Program-made: the position numbers and the translations under genes
Shown: positions 1,419-29,298 of the stretch, piece by piece
Layout of the letters: the number at the start of each line of letters is the position of its first letter
How positions within the stretch are numbered: position 1 is the first letter of the stretch
Notes under the pieces: model-generated
The model's input: the letters and a program-made list of their open reading frames with translations, nothing else
Databases searched by the model: none
What the model was told of the DNA's origin: nothing
IMG/VR virus record: IMGVR_UViG_2541047163_000016
Direction: 5' to 3' (one strand)
From: a virus
Taxonomy: Duplodnaviria; Heunggongvirae; Uroviricota; Caudoviricetes
DNA: 40,314 bases

Positions 1419-1572
1419 GACAGGATTTCCTTGTGTATGTGGGGTGCTCTGTGGCGCTCGGAGATGTGATTTGATTGAGGGTTTTACAGCGCGGACATTT
1501 TACTTCCAGATAACTGAAACTGGCCCGTGCCAGTAGCTTATTGCAGTGTCGGCACCGTATGTTTCGATACAT
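1372..1572 (-). CDS. com: Com-like zinc-finger translational activator of mom
   Basis: ATG at 1572 preceded by AGGAGG; product [14 protein letters not shown]...VKCPRCK has the CxxC...CxxC pattern and spacing recalled for Mu Com (IRCKNCNKLL...IRCPRCK); overlaps the mom start. Confidence 0.75.
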
Positions 1573-1615
1573 GACCGCATAACCTCCTGCTTTGTTGTTG
1601 ATGCCTTTCTCATGC

Positions 1616-1640
1616 AATCGATCGACAAAAACGATCGATT
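1616..1640. promoter_or_regulatory. Inverted repeat AATCGATCG-N7-CGATCGATT carrying two GATC (Dam) sites, upstream of com/mom
   Basis: GATC at 1620-1623 and 1633-1636 inside 9-bp inverted-repeat arms, 45-65 bp upstream of the com start; Mu mom promoter is known to be controlled through Dam sites. Confidence 0.5.
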
Positions 1641-1686
1641 CGATTTGTTTAATTGATACAACAAATAGATTGAAAAGTCATCAACA

Positions 1687-2151
1687 ATGATTCAGGGAGG
1701 TGATTATTTACTTAAAGAAAACGAAGAGTTAGGTGGTGAAAACGATCATAAAATGATCATTTTATTGACTTTTTATACAGTGAAGGTAGGATCACGCGTA
1801 TATGTAGTATGTTTCAAATCAACAGGATACTACATAAAAGTGAAACCCAGCATAGCTGGAACTATGCTGGGTCAATCTGTAAAAACTTGCATCAATGCTT
1901 TACTTCGAGCTCGTGGCGTATCCTATGATATTCCCCGGTCTCCTGTAAAGCAGAGATGCATAAAAAGGAGATCTTTATCATGGATGAAAGAGCCTGTTTG
2001 CCCTGCCTGTAAGACTCCCTTACAGCTCATCTATCGCCGTTCTCGATCTCAAAATGGCAAGACATACAAACCCAAAAATGCTTCCTGTTTCAGGATGCTG
2101 ATATGTCCTGCCTGTTCTCCCAGGAGGGAAAATACACAAAACGTGCATTAA
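1687..2151 (+). CDS. Hypothetical protein with C-terminal C4 zinc ribbon; start uncertain (1687, 1753 or 1984)
   Basis: Only sizeable plus-strand ORF in the cargo region; C-terminus CPACKTPL...(29 aa)...CPAC; AAGGAG at 1965-1970 precedes the in-frame ATG at 1984 (55-aa product); converges on the hairpin at 2161-2180. AT-richer than surrounding phage DNA. Confidence 0.35.
   Translation: MIQGGDYLLKENEELGGENDHKMIILLTFYTVKVGSRVYVVCFKSTGYYIKVKPSIAGTMLGQSVKTCINALLRARGVSYDIPRSPVKQRCIKRRSLSWMKEPVCPACKTPLQLIYRRSRSQNGKTYKPKNASCFRMLICPACSPRRENTQNVH
1846..1871 (-). terminator. Perfect 10-bp stem hairpin followed on the minus strand by a U-rich tract
   Basis: CCCAGCATAG-ctggaa-CTATGCTGGG; minus-strand downstream sequence is TTTCACTTTTAT. 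Lies inside the long version of ORF 1687-2151, which argues for the shorter 1984 start. Confidence 0.35.
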
Positions 2152-2160
2152 CAAACTCAC

Positions 2161-2180
2161 CCGGCAGGGAAACCTGCCGG
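2161..2180. terminator. Hairpin between convergent genes
   Basis: CCGGCAGG-gaaa-CCTGCCGG (8-bp stem, GAAA loop) between the stop of 1687-2151 (+) and the stop of 2190-2435 (-), with moderately U-rich flanks on both strands. Confidence 0.5.
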
Positions 2181-2189
2181 TCGGTATTG

Positions 2190-2435
2190 TTACATCATAG
2201 TACCGTCAGTTCCGGGCTGAACCGGCTCTGGTTGCTCTACGGGTTGAGGATCATTTTCCGTGCTGTTTTCAGCCGGAGAACGGCCAACCATTCGGGCCAG
2301 CACTTCATCAACATATGCGTCGATTTGTGCCTCAAAATCCTTGCGAACCTGCGCCTTCAGCACGCGGTTCACTTCTTCAGAATAAAGTGCCTGTTTGACA
2401 AGCTCTTCAGTAACCGTGCCTTTAATCTCTGGCAT
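2190..2435 (-). CDS. Hypothetical small acidic protein (cargo region)
   Basis: 81-aa ORF with AAAGGAGA ribosome-binding site 6 nt upstream of the ATG; no recognisable domain. Confidence 0.6.
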   Translation of the reverse strand: MPEIKGTVTEELVKQALYSEEVNRVLKAQVRKDFEAQIDAYVDEVLARMVGRSPAENSTENDPQPVEQPEPVQPGTDGTMM

Positions 2436-2470
2436 GAATATTCTCCTTTTGCAGGTATATTGCCCCGTTA

Positions 2471-2653
2471 TCAGAGCGGGGTCGGGTCGTTTGGGGATGA
2501 CGGTGCCTGTGCTGTTTTACTGAGTTTTTCAGCTGCCGCATCATCAATTTTACGGCGAATATAATTTCTGATGACCTTATAACCACCGCTCACCAGATAT
2601 AACGCACTGACCACAGCGCAGAAATAAAGCAGCATTGTATGAACGAATGTCAT
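2471..2653 (-). CDS. Hypothetical small membrane protein (cargo region)
   Basis: 60-aa ORF, AAGGTAAGG upstream of ATG; one hydrophobic N-terminal segment (MLLYFCAVVSALYLVSGG) then a charged tail. Confidence 0.55.
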   Translation of the reverse strand: MTFVHTMLLYFCAVVSALYLVSGGYKVIRNYIRRKIDDAAAEKLSKTAQAPSSPNDPTPL

Positions 2654-2766
2654 ATAACCTTACCTTTGATATTGACTACATAATTCGTTATCGGGTAAAA
2701 ACATCGAAGCGACTGATAACCACTCCTTCGGGAGTATTTTTATTTTCCTTTATGGGTTAGGTAGCT

Positions 2767-2801
2767 CCCGCCAGCCATATCATGACCGGCGGGATTTTTT
2801 T
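2767..2801 (+). terminator. Hairpin plus T7 run, plus-strand orientation, abutting the 3' end of the esterase-like gene
   Basis: CCCGCC...GGCGGG stem followed by TTTTTTT on the plus strand; the T-run overlaps the TAA of the minus-strand gene 2800-4839. Would block antisense transcription entering that gene. Confidence 0.4.
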
Positions 2802-4839
2802 ATTCTGTTACCGCTTTTTTCACTTCCACCACAATGCTGTCAATCAGCACCGGGTAAGTTGCATTTTTTGTGATATCCGTTACGCGGAGTTTGTCCACCG
2901 GGAAAGTTCCTACTGGTGACTGCGTCAGGGTAAACGCGGCACCATCCTGACCATCAATAACCGGAATAACCTGAAGGCTGTTATTTCCTGCAAAACGGAA
3001 GGCCAGCGTATGCCATTCATTATCAAATGCACCAAAGGTTCCCAGTTTCTGGTTATTTGTTGCCACTTTTGCATTGTGGTACATCACATTCAGGTCTTTT
3101 GCGTCTGTCTGGATGTAGAACGATGCCAGCAGATTATTCCCTGCATCCCCTGTCAGGGTGACACCCTGCGGCAGAGAGGAAACCGGCCAGTAAAGCCCCA
3201 TGACATACTGGTTTGCCACCAGGTCGCCAGGTACTTTAAAACGACAACTGATTAAACCACCATTTTTCAGCAGTTCAGCACCAGTACCGGCATCATGATC
3301 CAGATACCAAGATGATTTACCTGTTTCCTTGGTCAGTTTCATTGCCTTACCACCTGTGCCTCCTGCATCACTGATAATTTCAGCTTTACCGCCAGCCGGC
3401 TCCCAGCCCTGGGCTTTCAGATTTCCTTCTGACTCACTGACACGATAAGACAGCAGTGTTGTGGTTACTGCTTCAGTTTCTGAAGGTGACGGCACTGGTG
3501 CTTCAGTTTCAGAAGATGGAACATCGGCTTTTACTGTGGTTCGCCCCGCATGAGTCAGAACTGCCGTGGCCAGACGGTCGGAAATAATCCCACGACGTGC
3601 CCATGAACTGAAATGGCTGGCCCGGTCCGCAGATGTCCAGGTGGCGGCACTGTTACGCCACGTTGAGCCGTAATAACCAATGGATTCAATATCCGGGTCT
3701 TCTGCCGGATTGTTGGTGGGTACATTCGCGTCATTTTCATCTGTCATTAATGGAACGAAATGAATGTTTTTATCTGTTTTGTTTTTGTAGCCGCCATAGA
3801 TTGCCTGGTATGCCGGTTCATTTTTCTGTTTCCAGAAATACGTGGTATCGCCACAAATCCACGGAACGCCAGCAGCACTGCCACCGGTACACTGTTCCGC
3901 CTGTTCAGCCAGGTCTGCGCGGAATTTTTCCACCATCGCCAGAAACAGCGCGGAATGCTCCGTCGGCTTCGCATCAATATCAAACTCGCCCTGCATCCAC
4001 ACCACAGCAAGCAGGCGGTTTTTCGGGTTCTTCGCCAGTGCCGCTTTTGTCCGGCTGATTAAGTCCTTATACAGCGGCTTATCCACACCCCAGCGGGCTG
4101 AGTCCTCTGAAGCACCCGTGCTGTCACTGTACGTGCCGTCAGCACCCGCCGTGAATGCAGAACCACCACGGCAGCAGGGAACCAGCAGAATCCCCGCATC
4201 TGCCGGAATAAACGGCAGCAGTTTTTTGGCAATGTGAAGCCCCTGACCCACGGTGCCATATTGCCCTTTAGCCACATCCGCTTTCGGGTGATTTTTTCCA
4301 CTCATATCCTGCACATCATGCAGACAGTGGTCGGCCAGAATGATGTCGTTATACTGACAGGCTTTACCTCCCGGCGTGACTGTACTGCGACGGGCTAACT
4401 GCATAATACGCGGTTCGGGGCGGTCATATGTCTCCGGCAGTGGCAGACCTTCACCGTAAGCCATACCGTTTGACTGACCAGCAAGAACCACCACGTAATA
4501 CCAGGAAGGGGAGCTGGAAGCAGTTTCATTTCCTGACGGACGGGTATGTGTTTCAGCATTATCCCAGTCTGACGGTTCAGCAGTACCGGCAACATCAGCA
4601 CTTAACGGAATGACCGCACCAATACCCGCTCCGGTAATTTCCACACTCGGATCACCGGATACTGGCCTTACCCACAGGCAATCCCGTGTATTAAAACTGA
4701 TGAGACAGTCAGCAAATGTCATTCCTCCTTTTGTTTCGGCCGGAGGAAAGGGAGCCTCAAGAAATGCCGCTGTACCACCGGAAACTTTAACAGTAAAGTT
4801 TCCGGGCATTGATGATAGTTGAACCCATTTGGACGTCAT
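2800..4839 (-). CDS. Large cargo protein: SASA/SGNH-type carbohydrate O-acetylesterase-like domain with C-terminal beta-sandwich/lectin-like region
   Basis: 679-aa ORF with verified ATG; motif VVLAGQSNGMAYG resembles the GQSN(M) nucleophile motif of sialate O-acetylesterase (SASA) family enzymes; serine/threonine/proline-rich linker (...SETEAPVPSPSETEA...) before a C-terminal ~250-aa domain. Not part of the canonical Mu gene set. Confidence 0.55.
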   Translation of the reverse strand: MTSKWVQLSSMPGNFTVKVSGGTAAFLEAPFPPAETKGGMTFADCLISFNTRDCLWVRPVSGDPSVEITGAGIGAVIPLSADVAGTAEPSDWDNAETHTRPSGNETASSSPSWYYVVVLAGQSNGMAYGEGLPLPETYDRPEPRIMQLARRSTVTPGGKACQYNDIILADHCLHDVQDMSGKNHPKADVAKGQYGTVGQGLHIAKKLLPFIPADAGILLVPCCRGGSAFTAGADGTYSDSTGASEDSARWGVDKPLYKDLISRTKAALAKNPKNRLLAVVWMQGEFDIDAKPTEHSALFLAMVEKFRADLAEQAEQCTGGSAAGVPWICGDTTYFWKQKNEPAYQAIYGGYKNKTDKNIHFVPLMTDENDANVPTNNPAEDPDIESIGYYGSTWRNSAATWTSADRASHFSSWARRGIISDRLATAVLTHAGRTTVKADVPSSETEAPVPSPSETEAVTTTLLSYRVSESEGNLKAQGWEPAGGKAEIISDAGGTGGKAMKLTKETGKSSWYLDHDAGTGAELLKNGGLISCRFKVPGDLVANQYVMGLYWPVSSLPQGVTLTGDAGNNLLASFYIQTDAKDLNVMYHNAKVATNNQKLGTFGAFDNEWHTLAFRFAGNNSLQVIPVIDGQDGAAFTLTQSPVGTFPVDKLRVTDITKNATYPVLIDSIVVEVKKAVTE

Positions 4840-4938
4840 AATAATCAGCCTGTTCCTGAATAAACTGAATTATCATATCCACAGACCGATAAACGCCATT
4901 TTGCGTTAATTCAGTAAAGGCCCAACAAAGGGAGCGTC

Positions 4939-5499
4939 TTATTTTTCCGAAACGCTCGCAGGATAATAACGATAAAGGGTTGAAAGGCCGATATCAAAAA
5001 TAAGTGCCACCTGTCTTCGACTGACACCCCCGGCCAGTAAACGCCCGACCTGCTCGTATTGTTCCTGCGTGAGACGACGGGGTCTGCCGCCGGTTCGTCC
5101 CCTTTCACGGGCAGCTGCAAGACCAGCCCGTGTCCGTTCGACAATTAATTCACGCTCCATTTCTGCCAGCGCACCCATTATGTGAAAAAAGAAGCGCCCC
5201 ATGGGGGTTGACGTATCAATGTTGTCAGTAAGACTACGAAAATTTATCCCCTGTTGCTGTAATTCATCTGTCAGCGCAACAAGGTGGCGCATACTGCGCC
5301 CCAGCCTGTCCAGTTTCCAGACCATCAGTGTGTCACCGGGTTTTAGTTTCTTCAGTGCCCGCTTCAGTCCCGGCCGCTGTGTCGTTTTACCACTCATTTT
5401 ATCTTCAAAAATCTGCTCACATCCTGCACATTCCAGCGCATTTCTTTGTAAACCTGTGTTCTGGTCATTTGTTGATACGCGTATATAGCCAATCAGCAT
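4939..5499 (-). CDS. gin: Gin/Hin/Pin/Cin-family serine DNA invertase
   Basis: MLIGYIRVSTNDQNT...VWKLDRLGRS...FFHIMGALAEMERELI... closely matches the recalled Mu Gin sequence; lies next to a gix-like site and the tail-fibre module. Confidence 0.92.
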   Translation of the reverse strand: MLIGYIRVSTNDQNTGLQRNALECAGCEQIFEDKMSGKTTQRPGLKRALKKLKPGDTLMVWKLDRLGRSMRHLVALTDELQQQGINFRSLTDNIDTSTPMGRFFFHIMGALAEMERELIVERTRAGLAAARERGRTGGRPRRLTQEQYEQVGRLLAGGVSRRQVALIFDIGLSTLYRYYPASVSEK

Positions 5500-5553: not shown

Positions 5554-5579
5554 ATCCCTGAAACCTCGGTTTACGGGAT
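5554..5579. other. gix-like recombination site (gin-proximal)
   Basis: ATCCCTGAAACC-TC-GGTTTACGGGAT: 12+2+12 bp pseudo-palindrome resembling the Mu gix site TTATCCAAAACC-TC-GGTTTACAGGAA; lies in frame at the 5' edge of the silent tail-fibre cassette. Confidence 0.6.
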
Positions 5580-5924
5580 ACTGTAAACAGGGCCGCGAAT
5601 GCCCTGCCATCGAACGGAGCGGCTGTTGCAGCGAATAAACTCGCCACTCCAAGAAATATTAATGGTGTCCCATTTGACGGAACGCAGGATATAAATATTA
5701 CATCGGGGATGACGCAGTCTGTGGCTGACTCACGTTATGTTCAAAGCATTCGAAGAGGTTCAAGGTCAACGATTGGAATGCAATATAATATTTTTGAGGT
5801 TCCTGACGGATGCGTACTTACAGGGCTTGATGTCGCTGGTGATGGTAATGCAACGGTAACCGCATATTATCGACCTGTTCAGTTTCTGATAGATGGTTCG
5901 TGGAAAACAGCTTCCAGCGCATAA
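5562..5924 (+). other. Promoterless alternative tail-fibre C-terminal cassette (S'v-like)
   Basis: In-frame from the stop at 5559-5561: GLRDTVNRAANALPS...ATPRNINGVPFDGTQDINITSGMTQSVADSRYVQ... parallels residues 178-240 of the expressed tail fibre and then diverges; ends ...YYRPVQFLIDGSWKTASSA. Confidence 0.6.
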
Positions 5925-6559: not shown

Positions 6560-7471
6560 TTACACTGAACTTACCGTTCTCCAGGCATTATTAATATAAA
6601 TCTGAACCGGGCGATAATAGACCCCACCGATATTGTCCGCAGACCGGGAGCCGGTTTCCTGCACGTTAATTCCGGAAAGCATACAACCGGAAGGTGCGCT
6701 GTAATTCCATGACATTTCATTGCCTCCGGGTGAATGATAGCTCTGTGCTCCAAGCTGAACATTCTGTACATACCGGCCATCTGCGGTTGACTGCGTCATT
6801 CCTGACGTGATGTTGATATCCAGCGTTCCGTCAAAAGGAACACCATTAATATTTCTTGGGGTGGCGAGTCTGTTTGCTGCCACGGCGGTTCCACCCGATG
6901 GCAGGGCATCAGCAGCCTTATTTACCGTTTCCCGTAAACCAACGTTATCGATAAAAGCGCCTTTATCCGGAATGTCTGCGCCGTTCTGCTCCCTGCGCAG
7001 GTAACGGTTATCACCTTCGCTTTTGCTGTAAACATCCAGATTATTACGGGCGGTTCCCGCATTCTCCAGGTCGGCAAGGTTCTGATCCTTCGCCAGAGCA
7101 TTAACGTCACCGGGACCAAGACTGTTTTTTGTGGCAAGCGCCCCAAGACCAAGATAACCACGGGCAAGACGCTGGGCTTCCGCACCGGCATCAGCAATTT
7201 CTTTCAGGTTGTTTTTCCGGGAAAAGGCATTCGCAGCGATAATGGCTTTAATGGACAGCGTAAGCTGGTTTAACTGCGCCTTATCCGGCTGAATACTGGC
7301 TTCAGCCAGAATATTCAGCAGTTCGGCCTGGAGAATATTCAGCCAGTCCTGACCAATCCAGCTGATACCTTTTTGTCCGTCACCTTCGGTAAACCAGGTG
7401 GTGGTATTACTCTGCGCCGGTGCCAGCGCAGGCATATTCGCCACGCCGGAATTATTATCAACATGAAACAT
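6560..7471 (-). CDS. Tail fibre protein (S-like), currently expressed variant
   Basis: ATG at 7471 overlaps the upstream stop (TAATG) and is preceded by GAGGAG; C-terminal ~127 aa parallels the silent cassette; ends ...GGVYYRPVQIYINNAWRTVSSV. The ORF-track start at 7525 lies inside the upstream gene. Confidence 0.75.
   Translation of the reverse strand: MFHVDNNSGVANMPALAPAQSNTTTWFTEGDGQKGISWIGQDWLNILQAELLNILAEASIQPDKAQLNQLTLSIKAIIAANAFSRKNNLKEIADAGAEAQRLARGYLGLGALATKNSLGPGDVNALAKDQNLADLENAGTARNNLDVYSKSEGDNRYLRREQNGADIPDKGAFIDNVGLRETVNKAADALPSGGTAVAANRLATPRNINGVPFDGTLDINITSGMTQSTADGRYVQNVQLGAQSYHSPGGNEMSWNYSAPSGCMLSGINVQETGSRSADNIGGVYYRPVQIYINNAWRTVSSV
6929..6954. other. gix-like recombination site inside the tail fibre gene
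   Basis: Read on the minus strand: TTATCGATAACG-TT-GGTTTACGGGAA (10/12 and 11/12 matches to the Mu gix half-sites); encodes FIDNVGLRE at tail-fibre residues 173-181, exactly where homology with the silent cassette begins. Confidence 0.5.
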
Positions 7472-18826: not shown

Positions 18827-19774
18827 TTACAGATAATCCGCGACAACCAGCTCCAGCTTACCCTTCATCTCGTTAGAGACGGTTGCGTTTCCGTCTGCGA
18901 ACAGTTCACGCTCCAGCAGCTGCACCGCCTGTTTTTCCAGCGAGGTGGGGACAACAATATGGGTGGGTTTAATGCCGAGTTTGCGGCCACCGTCAGCGGT
19001 AAATTCGCGCATGGCTGACCAGCCGTGCCACAGTGCATCCAGCGTCAGCGGTGACTGCATCATGTAGGCCATCTGCCAGAAGCCGTAGCCCACATTGCGA
19101 CGGGCGGATGCACCAAACACAAATTCGTTATCGGTGAATGCGCGACCTTCATCGACTTTGGTCTGGGCAACCAGTTCAGCCTTACGGCGATCCTGATAAA
19201 TCAGCGGTTTTACCGCGCGGGAGCAGTCAAGCAGATACCAGGCCGGACCGCTGTAATCAGCCTGTGCGCCGACAGAGCCGGTTTTTGCCACAAACATATT
19301 GCTGACCATCTGCGCATCCCCGGAGCCATCCACTTTGGGGTAAACCGGATGTTCGGTATCAAAGAAGTTCTGACCGTCATAGCAGGCCGCACTGATCCCG
19401 TCACGCAGGGCAGCAAAGACCAGCTCATCCGGTTGTACCGCCGCAGCGCGCCCCATCTCCTGGAACAACGGGGAATAAATACCGAGGTTGTCGTCTTCGA
19501 AGTCATCGCGGCTAATGGCGACAGTGCCTTCAAAAGTTTTGTTCACGATGGCATAGCCATAGGCTTTCATCTTCTCGATGACGCGGGAGCCGATCCACTC
19601 ACGGAACTGCGGGAACTGCCCCAGCCAGCCGTAGGTGTTGGATTTCGATGTGGAGGGCACGGTCATCGCAATTTTTTTATACTGCGACGGGGCCATGGAC
19701 ATCCCGGCCTGAAAATCAGAACGGTAGCCCGTCATCAGGGCTGTGATCATCGCCGGTGTAATCGGGGTAGGCAT
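18827..19774 (-). CDS. Major head (capsid) protein, Mu T-like
   Basis: 315-aa ORF following the I-like gene with TAATG stop/start overlap. Confidence 0.8.
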   Translation of the reverse strand: MPTPITPAMITALMTGYRSDFQAGMSMAPSQYKKIAMTVPSTSKSNTYGWLGQFPQFREWIGSRVIEKMKAYGYAIVNKTFEGTVAISRDDFEDDNLGIYSPLFQEMGRAAAVQPDELVFAALRDGISAACYDGQNFFDTEHPVYPKVDGSGDAQMVSNMFVAKTGSVGAQADYSGPAWYLLDCSRAVKPLIYQDRRKAELVAQTKVDEGRAFTDNEFVFGASARRNVGYGFWQMAYMMQSPLTLDALWHGWSAMREFTADGGRKLGIKPTHIVVPTSLEKQAVQLLERELFADGNATVSNEMKGKLELVVADYL

Positions 19775-20898: not shown

Positions 20899-21044
20899 TC
20901 CGGCAGCATAAGCCGGGAATTTTCAGGGCGGGTTTTGCGGGATTTCAGGAAGTGCTTCCAGGGGAAAAATACAAAGGCGCTTCACGCAGATTTTAAAGCC
21001 CGTTAAATACAGGTTAGAAAATCACGACACGCGCCTGAAGGGGG

Positions 21045-28840: not shown

Positions 28841-28872
28841 GGTGAAGGAGAGGCGGCAGGCTTTGCGGAATA

Positions 28873-29298
28873 TCAGAAAAGTGGCGGTTGCGTTCTTACC
28901 AGATGCAGACGGCGCTGTTCGCGTATGACGGTATAAATCTGGGTTTCTGACATCCGGTAATGGCGGCGAAGGGATTCAATTTTCTCGCCCCGGTCCCAGC
29001 GCGAAAATATCTCATTGTTTCGCAGCTCGGCAAAGAGAGATTCCCCGACCGGCAGGTAATAACCCCGTCCGCCCATATAGGCGGCCTGAGCCGCAGCCAC
29101 CTTGCGTGCCAGTTTACCGGCCAGTACCGGCTCAATCCCCTGACGCTGAAGTTCTGCGCCGGTGACTTCAACCAGTTCTGACAGGGTCCGCGGCCAGTTC
29201 TTTTTGAGAACATCATCAGGGATGTCATCAAGGCGGTCGATAAGGGCGTGCAGTTGCTCACTGTCACCACCAAACATGCTCATCTGAGTTTCTGCCAT
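28873..29298 (-). CDS. mor: Mor/C-family transcriptional activator
   Basis: ATG preceded by GGAGG; C-terminal region ...LPVGESLFAELRNNEIFSRWDRGEKIESLRRHYRMSETQIYTVIREQRR parallels the recalled Mu Mor C-terminal helix-turn-helix region. Confidence 0.75.
   Translation of the reverse strand: MAETQMSMFGGDSEQLHALIDRLDDIPDDVLKKNWPRTLSELVEVTGAELQRQGIEPVLAGKLARKVAAAQAAYMGGRGYYLPVGESLFAELRNNEIFSRWDRGEKIESLRRHYRMSETQIYTVIREQRRLHLVRTQPPLF

Follow-up and report, generated by a model that had tools for sequence, protein, structure and literature searches.

The NanS-p sialate O-acetylesterases are thought to help Escherichia coli strains that make Shiga toxin (STEC) to use the O-acetylated sialic acids of gut mucus, and they have so far been discussed as a feature of lambdoid Shiga toxin (Stx) prophages. 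Members of the family are reported to de-O-acetylate both Neu5,9Ac2 and the glycans of mucin, letting lysogens grow on Neu5,9Ac2, and a benefit to lysogens from enzyme released at lysis has been described in a review (PMC8065619). Members are recognised by a NanS-like SASA/SGNH domain with the serine of a GQSN motif in block I and the histidine of a RASH or RSSH motif in block IV, and genes for DUF826 and DUF1378 proteins have been noted between nanS-p and S (PMC10462455). In phage phi24B, the NanS-p protein gp84 is an abundant virion protein whose DUF1737 domain binds the capsid hexons as a hexamer, the rest of the protein being cleaved off later at Ser/Pro-rich linkers (2026 cryo-electron microscopy preprint). 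Here we describe a NanS-p-type gene of a different phage type, found in IMG/VR record IMGVR_UViG_2541047163_000016; the whole stretch of 40,314 nucleotides that was analysed is referred to as the window. Judged by its sequence, the window is a Mu-like prophage of the Sp18 type of E. coli O157-type, with genes read on the - strand; Sp18 itself is a Mu-like prophage of strain Sakai (PMC2669165). Taken as a whole, the region between gin and com/mom is best explained, and probably correctly so, as a three-gene NanS-p operon (esterase, DUF1378, and DUF826) with a late promoter and a swapped N-terminal domain.

The first gene of the region (2800-4839, - strand) encodes a protein of 679 amino acids (aa; 72.6 kDa) with matches to Pfam SASA (46 bits; cut-off, 24.8) and DUF6645 (231 bits). 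Residues 104 to 428 aligned to the E. coli NanS structure 3PT5 (E = 1.9e-118), and residues 459 to 674 aligned to 6YP6, the C-terminal domain of phage phi24B NanS-p (E = 1e-111). The body of the protein consists of a SASA/SGNH catalytic domain (aa 114-432; 3544-4500), a Ser/Thr/Pro linker, here called linker 2 (aa 433-460; 3460-3543), and a lectin-like jelly-roll DUF6645 domain at the C terminus (aa 461-679; 2803-3459). Identity to gp44, the esterase of Stx2 phage 1717, was 78% over aa 102-673. The nucleophile is Ser123 of the GQSN motif (aa 121-124; codon, 4471-4473), and His409 (codon, 3613-3615) lies in a RASH motif. Four aromatic residues have been proposed for the sugar site of the phi24B C-terminal domain, namely, Y510, Y515, Y540, and F611 (PMC10462455), and all four were kept, as Y545, Y550, Y575, and F646. 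The ratio of nonsynonymous to synonymous substitution rates was ~0.1 in the catalytic domain and ~0.1 to 0.2 across both domains, indicating purifying selection. This strong homology placed the 679-aa protein among the NanS-p prophage sialate O-acetylesterases. An original prediction made from the DNA alone had proposed a GQSN-type SASA/SGNH carbohydrate O-acetylesterase with a Ser/Thr/Pro-rich linker and a beta-rich, possibly glycan-binding C-terminal domain; the Pfam matches, the alignments to 3PT5 and 6YP6, and the identity to phage 1717 gp44 bore out this reading.

The chromosomal NanS of E. coli (YjhS, 3PT5) has the catalytic domain, the serine, and the histidine in common with this protein, but it is a single-domain enzyme of ~326 aa encoded in the nanCMS operon, has neither the N-terminal nor the lectin domain, and is not phage-borne. 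By homology, Ser123 and His409 would serve to take the 9-O-acetyl group off Neu5,9Ac2 and similar sialic acids of gut mucin glycans, and the lectin-like domain would keep the enzyme on the glycan. De-O-acetylation may then open otherwise protected sialic acid to E. coli and to sialidase-producing neighbours, as for the lambdoid NanS-p enzymes that have been tested. NCBI and UniRef already list the exact protein as 'sialate O-acetylesterase', and it was present on at least ~1,000 contigs. With a known enzyme family and an existing annotation of this copy, there is nothing out of the ordinary in the basic finding.

Comparison with lambdoid NanS-p indicated a shared enzyme body in a different frame. 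The catalytic and lectin-like domains were 78 to 82% identical, with the same GQSN, RASH, and sugar-site aromatics, and both types have two flexible Ser/Pro-rich linkers, DUF1378 and DUF826 genes after the esterase, and a late-gene context. They differ in that the window protein has an unrelated all-beta domain instead of DUF1737, the capsid anchor of phi24B. Furthermore, the window gene belongs to a transposable Mu-like myovirus and is flanked there by gin and com/mom, whereas its lambdoid counterpart is part of the late operon, after Q/stx and ahead of holin S. Control of the window gene is apparently by a C-type activator promoter rather than by Q antitermination.

The Mu-lineage-specific domain that stands in place of DUF1737 spans aa 1 to ~78 (4606-4839, - strand) and is followed by linker 1, a predicted disordered segment (aa 79-113; 4501-4605) that ends in ...ASSSPSW and in which the predicted local distance difference test (pLDDT) score is below 50 from aa 80. 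The first ~78 aa were predicted to form a six-stranded beta domain, with pLDDT values of 80 to 89 over aa 11-70, in a model built from four sequences only. No Pfam match to DUF1737 was detected in the 679-aa protein, whereas phage 1717 gp44 scores 57.8 bits, and column identity across the N-terminal region was ~15%. The domain had no Pfam match at all, and an exhaustive search of 1.8 billion representatives returned five matches: two fragments of esterases of the same architecture (P0004 and P0008), two short fragments, and a repeat protein whose match is probably compositional. Relatives of adequate length were all joined to SASA esterases. Fold searches with the domain returned only generic cupin/jelly-roll barrels and unnamed small phage proteins. 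Amino acid identity of the domain was ~60% among Mu-type alleles and 26 to 29% to the N-terminal domain of an esterase encoded downstream of gin in a Salmonella Mu-like prophage.

The rest of the protein had a different history. DNA homology to lambdoid nanS-p was limited to 2811-4494, which covers the catalytic and C-terminal domains and starts just after linker 1. The catalytic and C-terminal domains of the window allele were 82% and 79 to 82% identical to lambdoid alleles but only 70% and 72% identical to other Mu-type alleles. In strain 2012C-4502, the esterase (7147-9165) was chimeric, with an N-terminal domain identical to that of the window at the nucleotide level, a catalytic domain that was 67% identical, and a C-terminal domain that was only 38% identical. 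The closeness of the window body to lambdoid alleles and the 2012C-4502 chimera argue that the body was swapped independently of the N-terminal domain. These results indicated that the enzyme body has been exchanged across phage lineages, including lambdoid ones, and that the N-terminal domain remains tied to the Mu-type backbone. A similar pattern is seen in modular genes for tail fibres and tailspikes, whose N-terminal part follows the phage lineage, while horizontal exchange, even with unrelated phages, replaces the distal catalytic or binding body. In the window protein, however, the body is a mucin-directed esterase and not a host-receptor binder, and attachment to the particle is only a candidate function.

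As DUF1737 anchors gp84 of phi24B, the lineage-specific domain is, by analogy, a candidate anchor for the Mu-type particle. The swapped domain would dock the enzyme on this particle, at the capsid or the tail, much as DUF1737 does on phi24B; of the steps proposed, this is the least certain. The wider proposal, that NanS-p proteins are virion-displayed modular enzymes whose anchor is swapped to suit each particle and that the ~78-aa beta-barrel is the docking domain for a Mu-type head or tail, is put forward tentatively and may well be wrong. A virion-associated enzyme and a secreted esterase released at lysis had both been suggested at the outset; each fits the NanS-p family (PMC8065619; phi24B preprint).

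Evidence on the time of expression came from the spacer between gin and the esterase gene, which was poorly conserved between divergent alleles save for two blocks, one of them CTGAATTAACGCAAA (4914-4900, - strand). This element is followed by a 22-nucleotide (nt) spacer and the hexamer TATGAT (4877-4872), with no -35 hexamer, and the whole (4872-4914) constitutes a putative C-type activator-dependent late promoter, from which transcription is predicted to start near 4865. The composite motif CTGAnnTnnCGCAAA-N22/23-TAYGMT had exactly three copies in the window, all of them free of mismatches, on the - strand, and intergenic; the chance expectation for its 11 fixed bases is ~0.02 copies in the window. 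The further CTGAnnTnnCGCAAA copies (20934-20948 and 28862-28876, - strand), each with TATGCT or TACGCT 23 nt on, are also candidate late promoters. One copy separates the G-like gene from gene I, which encodes a protease, and the other separates the C homologue from the lysozyme gene (lys); in the Mu gene order, these are the positions of the C-dependent promoters PI and Plys. The hexamers TATGAT, TATGCT, and TACGCT sit 22 to 23 nt after CGCAAA, placing the upstream element at ~-35 to -50 relative to the -10 hexamer. The motif was also kept at the esterase, Plys-like, and PI-like sites of a divergent prophage of strain 23CRST047.

Late promoters of Mu have a -10 but no -35 hexamer, and the dyad to which C binds has its centre at -43.5 (PMC2582627). 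By the criteria of that work, the layout of a Mu-type late promoter was present here, with a -10 hexamer, no -35 hexamer, and an activator element over the -35 region. The two systems also agree in the C-lys and G-I positions of the sites. They differ in that CTGAnnTnnCGCAAA is unlike the Mu C site and in that one of the three copies found precedes a gene absent from Mu; no Mu-type C site (TTAT...ATAA) was seen by eye upstream of the esterase gene. The window contains a Mor/C-family activator gene between gemA and lys (28873-29298, - strand), whose product shared 39% identity with Mu C and 27% with Mor. It was the one gene of this family detected in the window; Mu has mor and C, with three small genes between them. 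Overall, the three perfect copies, the Plys and PI positions of the other two, and their conservation in a divergent prophage pointed to a probable late promoter dedicated to the esterase gene and resembling in type those of lys and the head genes. The enzyme would then probably be made late in lytic growth under the C-type activator and leave the cell at lysis.

Downstream of the esterase gene on the same strand are a 60-aa DUF1378 gene (2471-2653; 131.5 bits; E = 1.2e-38) and an 81-aa DUF826 gene (2190-2435; 56.7 bits; E = 2.8e-15), the Pfam cut-off being 25 bits for each. The DUF1378 protein has an N-terminal hydrophobic helix and a basic tail (isoelectric point [pI], 9.3), and the DUF826 protein is acidic (pI, 4.3) and is encoded behind a strong AAGGAG ribosome-binding site. 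The small membrane protein and the acidic protein foreseen after the esterase were thus both confirmed by Pfam. In the lambdoid Stx phage 1720a-02, the order is esterase, 60-aa gene, 81-aa gene, and holin S, with gene sizes the same as those in the window. The DUF1378 protein was 54% identical to the product of the gene in the same position in 1720a-02, and the DUF826 protein was 47% identical to 'ORF C81-like', which lies directly upstream of holin S. The small genes are found beside the esterase in both of these unrelated types of phage, and their products therefore probably cooperate with the enzyme and not with the lysis cassette of lambdoid phages.

Three hairpins were detected in the region, for which hairpin terminators had originally been predicted. 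A 13-bp stem-loop just after the esterase stop (2766-2794) is preceded by an A-run on the - strand, which corresponds to a U7 run after it on the + strand. Since it has no U-run on the - strand, this hairpin is more likely a block to antisense transcription and looks like a terminator for the + strand, not for the operon. A hairpin with a different stem sequence was kept at the esterase-stop position in phage 1720a-02 and in 23CRST047. A GC-rich hairpin with an 8-bp stem (2161-2180; -22 kcal/mol; z scores of -3.3 on the - strand and -4.2 on the + strand) lies between the convergent DUF826 gene and zinc-ribbon open reading frame (ORF) and is likely a bidirectional terminator. An intrinsic terminator on the - strand (1844-1873; z score of -5.65) has a 13-bp stem followed by the U-run UUUCACUUUUAU. 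The - strand transcript would therefore be ordered as promoter (~4872-4914), esterase, stem-loop 2766-2794, DUF1378, DUF826, hairpin 2161-2180, and terminator 1844-1873.

The distribution of these genes was examined in eight Sp18-type E. coli prophages (the window, PA20, LC727881, M3, 23CRST047, FORC_043, 2012C-4502, and SW070917). The esterase, DUF1378, and DUF826 genes were present between the tail-fibre/gin end and com in all eight, although some of the esterase alleles were only ~70% identical. In strain M3, gin was missing (10439-10742) and the esterase gene came directly after the tail-fibre genes, with DUF1378 and DUF826 kept. In the Salmonella prophage, two additional small ORFs separate gin from the esterase gene (9426-9910), one of 58 aa with a hydrophobic segment at its C terminus and one of 87 aa, and the contig stops inside the esterase gene. 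These results indicated that the module is stable in the lineage and is not recent cargo. The original prediction had treated the region as separately acquired cargo, a view that a core position in all related Mu-like phages would contradict. This view holds only in part: the module is absent from Mu and from a Yersinia Mu-like phage, but it is present in 8/8 Sp18-type prophages, and a related esterase gene follows gin in Salmonella. The module is therefore a constant part of the Sp18-type prophages examined but not of every Mu-like phage.

Several points count against the explanation of the region as an operon with its own late promoter. The promoter was deduced from the DNA sequence, and at the places corresponding to PP and Pmom of Mu, before the tail genes and com/mom, a search with up to 2 mismatches or with looser patterns detected nothing convincing. 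The stem-loop at 2766-2794 could limit the expression of both small genes. Sp18 is described as intact and as not induced by mitomycin C (PMC2669165), which bears on when its late genes would be expressed in nature. Lastly, a literature search that did not cover Rangel 2016 and Saile 2016 found no experiment on this Sp18 allele, and virion data for Sp18-type phages were not found either.

The strongest alternative is that the esterase gene is a plain lysogenic-conversion gene expressed in the lysogen and serving host nutrition only, with the N-terminal domain a leftover of recombination. No terminator-like site was found between gin, which is constitutively expressed, and the esterase gene, and low-level read-through from gin is thus possible in lysogens. 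Alleles of NanS-p are reported to aid the growth of lysogens on Neu5,9Ac2 (PMC8065619), and a benefit of this kind would explain the retention of the module in a prophage that mitomycin C does not induce (PMC2669165). However, the late-promoter motif occupies the same spot in divergent alleles, and the conservation of the N-terminal domain (~60% among Mu-type alleles and 26 to 29% with Salmonella), always in the same architecture, is unlike that of junk. Furthermore, the enzyme has no signal peptide, so that a lysogen would need lysis for its release. Lysogenic conversion alone is thus a possible explanation, though a doubtful one.

An adsorption enzyme of the tail was also considered, in which the protein would be carried by the baseplate or fibres and would assist infection by removing O-acetyl groups from a glycan of the bacterial surface, such as O-antigen or an O-acetylated sialic-acid capsule, in the manner of SGNH tailspike esterases. 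The position of the gene directly after the tail-fibre genes, the invertible segment, and gin would suit this role; there was also a weak match to a PHROG 'tail protein' (E = 4e-5; aa 210-311), and receptor unmasking has been raised as an open possibility (PMC8065619). The catalytic domain, however, aligns nearly end to end with the sialate-specific NanS (E = 1.9e-118), the body is common to lambdoid phages of different tail types, and the phi24B anchor is on the capsid and not on the tail (2026 preprint), all of which make an adsorption role unlikely. A superinfection-exclusion or defence module made up of the membrane, acidic, and zinc-ribbon products, with the esterase incidental, is highly improbable despite the variability of the DUF826-com region and the frequency with which small membrane proteins beside phage accessory genes are exclusion factors, as none of the four proteins had a PADLOC match below E = 0.05, DUF1378 and DUF826 lie directly after the esterase in the lambdoid late lysis operon, and the zinc-ribbon ORF is not conserved, leaving nothing to support this part of the original prediction.

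The boundaries of the module were defined by comparison with Mu. Upstream is the gin-type DNA invertase gene (4939-5499, - strand; Pfam Resolvase and HTH_7), and downstream are com (1372-1572 or 1617, - strand; Pfam Zn_ribbon_Com) and mom (681-1418, - strand; Pfam Mom). In Mu, only 94 bp separate gin from com, and ~3.3 kb of the window is thus extra relative to Mu; in the Yersinia Mu-like phage, gin likewise adjoins com without the module. The extra island of ~3.3 kb in the original prediction, with all of its ORFs in place, therefore stands. A search of NCBIfam gave no match for any protein of the region. The downstream boundary is formed by com and its upstream regulatory region (1372-1667, - strand), since the block conserved with divergent prophages stops at ~1667. 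This region contains a perfect inverted repeat of 9 bp that includes two GATC sites (AATCGATCG...CGATCGATT; 1616-1640), ~45 to 70 nt upstream of the com ATG, and that resembles the Dam/OxyR GATC cluster of Mu mom. The space from the GATC sites to com is apparently too short to hold a C site of the Mu kind. The adjacent sequence ATCAATTAA, also within 1616-1667, is similar to the 3' end of Mu gin, a hint that the module junction falls in an ancestral gin end. In LC727881 (4867-5919) and SW070917 (4463-5515), a 350-aa DNA cytosine methyltransferase gene occupied the place of mom after com, indicating that the modification gene has been swapped behind the same com in these prophages.

Between DUF826 and this block lies 1668-2189, which contains a + strand ORF of 154 aa (1687-2151). 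This candidate was rejected as a gene: it had indels in the 95.6%-identical variant LC727881, was frameshifted or partial in RefSeq entries elsewhere, contained the terminator at 1844-1873, where changes were clustered in LC727881, and had given way in strains M3 and 23CRST047 to a different ORF of 86 aa, unrelated to it. As the ORF is broken or replaced in relatives, 1668-2189 is a variable, AT-rich spacer. Its last 55 codons (1984-2151, + strand) form an orphan zinc-ribbon ORF with a CPAC-X33-CPAC pattern and an upstream AGGAG; in LC727881 these codons were kept, with two substitutions, both synonymous. Homologues of the 55-aa ORF were limited to near-identical E. coli copies, and its Pfam and PHROG matches were insignificant. 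Of the opposite-strand zinc-ribbon gene first proposed, at most this orphan survives. The region had also been described as AT-richer than its surroundings, especially at 1690-2650. GC content was 0.40 in 1618-2189, 0.51 in the esterase core, and 0.545 in the rest of the phage, AT-richness being marked only in 1618-2189. Composition was thus a weak basis for proposing a recent foreign acquisition.

The wider setting of the prophage was examined in sequenced genomes. Positions 1500-5000 of the window matched many chromosomes of E. coli O157:H7 and other STEC at 100% identity. Among 5,426 complete E. coli genomes, a near-identical island was present in 167, the com/mom block in 226, and gin in 204. 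Strains have several copies of such genes, the 1,133 genomes with any match having a median of 3 and a maximum of 12 places matching the region. Positions 1-552 of the window are the 3' end of gpJ, a lambdoid tail-tip gene (Pfam Ig_GpJ_C) with 99.6% identity to the gpJ copies of many genomes, and the Mu-like right end meets gpJ at ~553, so that the element is a prophage within a prophage. This junction was found in no complete E. coli genome of the collection. In every other strain examined the insertion site was different (bcsA, flgL, ydcF, a FimD/PapC usher gene, melA, and near lambdoid nin-region genes). The different sites are consistent with active transposition and with a mobile element that carries the module along. 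Beside gin, inverted repeats of 182 nt (5562-5743 and 6765-6946; 78% complementary) bracket an invertible tail-fibre segment of ~1 kb. The sites of the Mu G segment are short, and the repeats of the window are far longer. The major head protein is encoded at 18827-19774. In strain 23CRST047, RefSeq places a 'tRNA-OTHER' (17248-17327) between a virion morphogenesis gene and a minor head gene; ARAGORN detected no tRNA in the window.

A literature search that did not include Rangel 2016, Saile 2016, and Feuerbaum 2018 did not find descriptions of the Mu-type architecture without DUF1737, the exchange of the body with lambdoid prophages, or the dedicated late promoter, and no paper among those searched named both nanS-p and Mu-like. 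The gene described here is carried by a transposable Mu-like phage with many chromosomal sites. Should the link to the virion fail, it would be a well-annotated paralogue in an unusual phage. Taken with the phi24B result, the window suggests that phages of different architectures each display an esterase on their particles, and the natural domain swap offers a clean case for studying the recognition of capsids by such anchors. If this is true, the Mu-like phages of enterohaemorrhagic E. coli and Salmonella would bear a mucin-active, mucin-binding surface enzyme made from a dedicated C-dependent late promoter, and the view of these genes would move from cargo for host nutrition to structural accessories of the phage for life in mucus.

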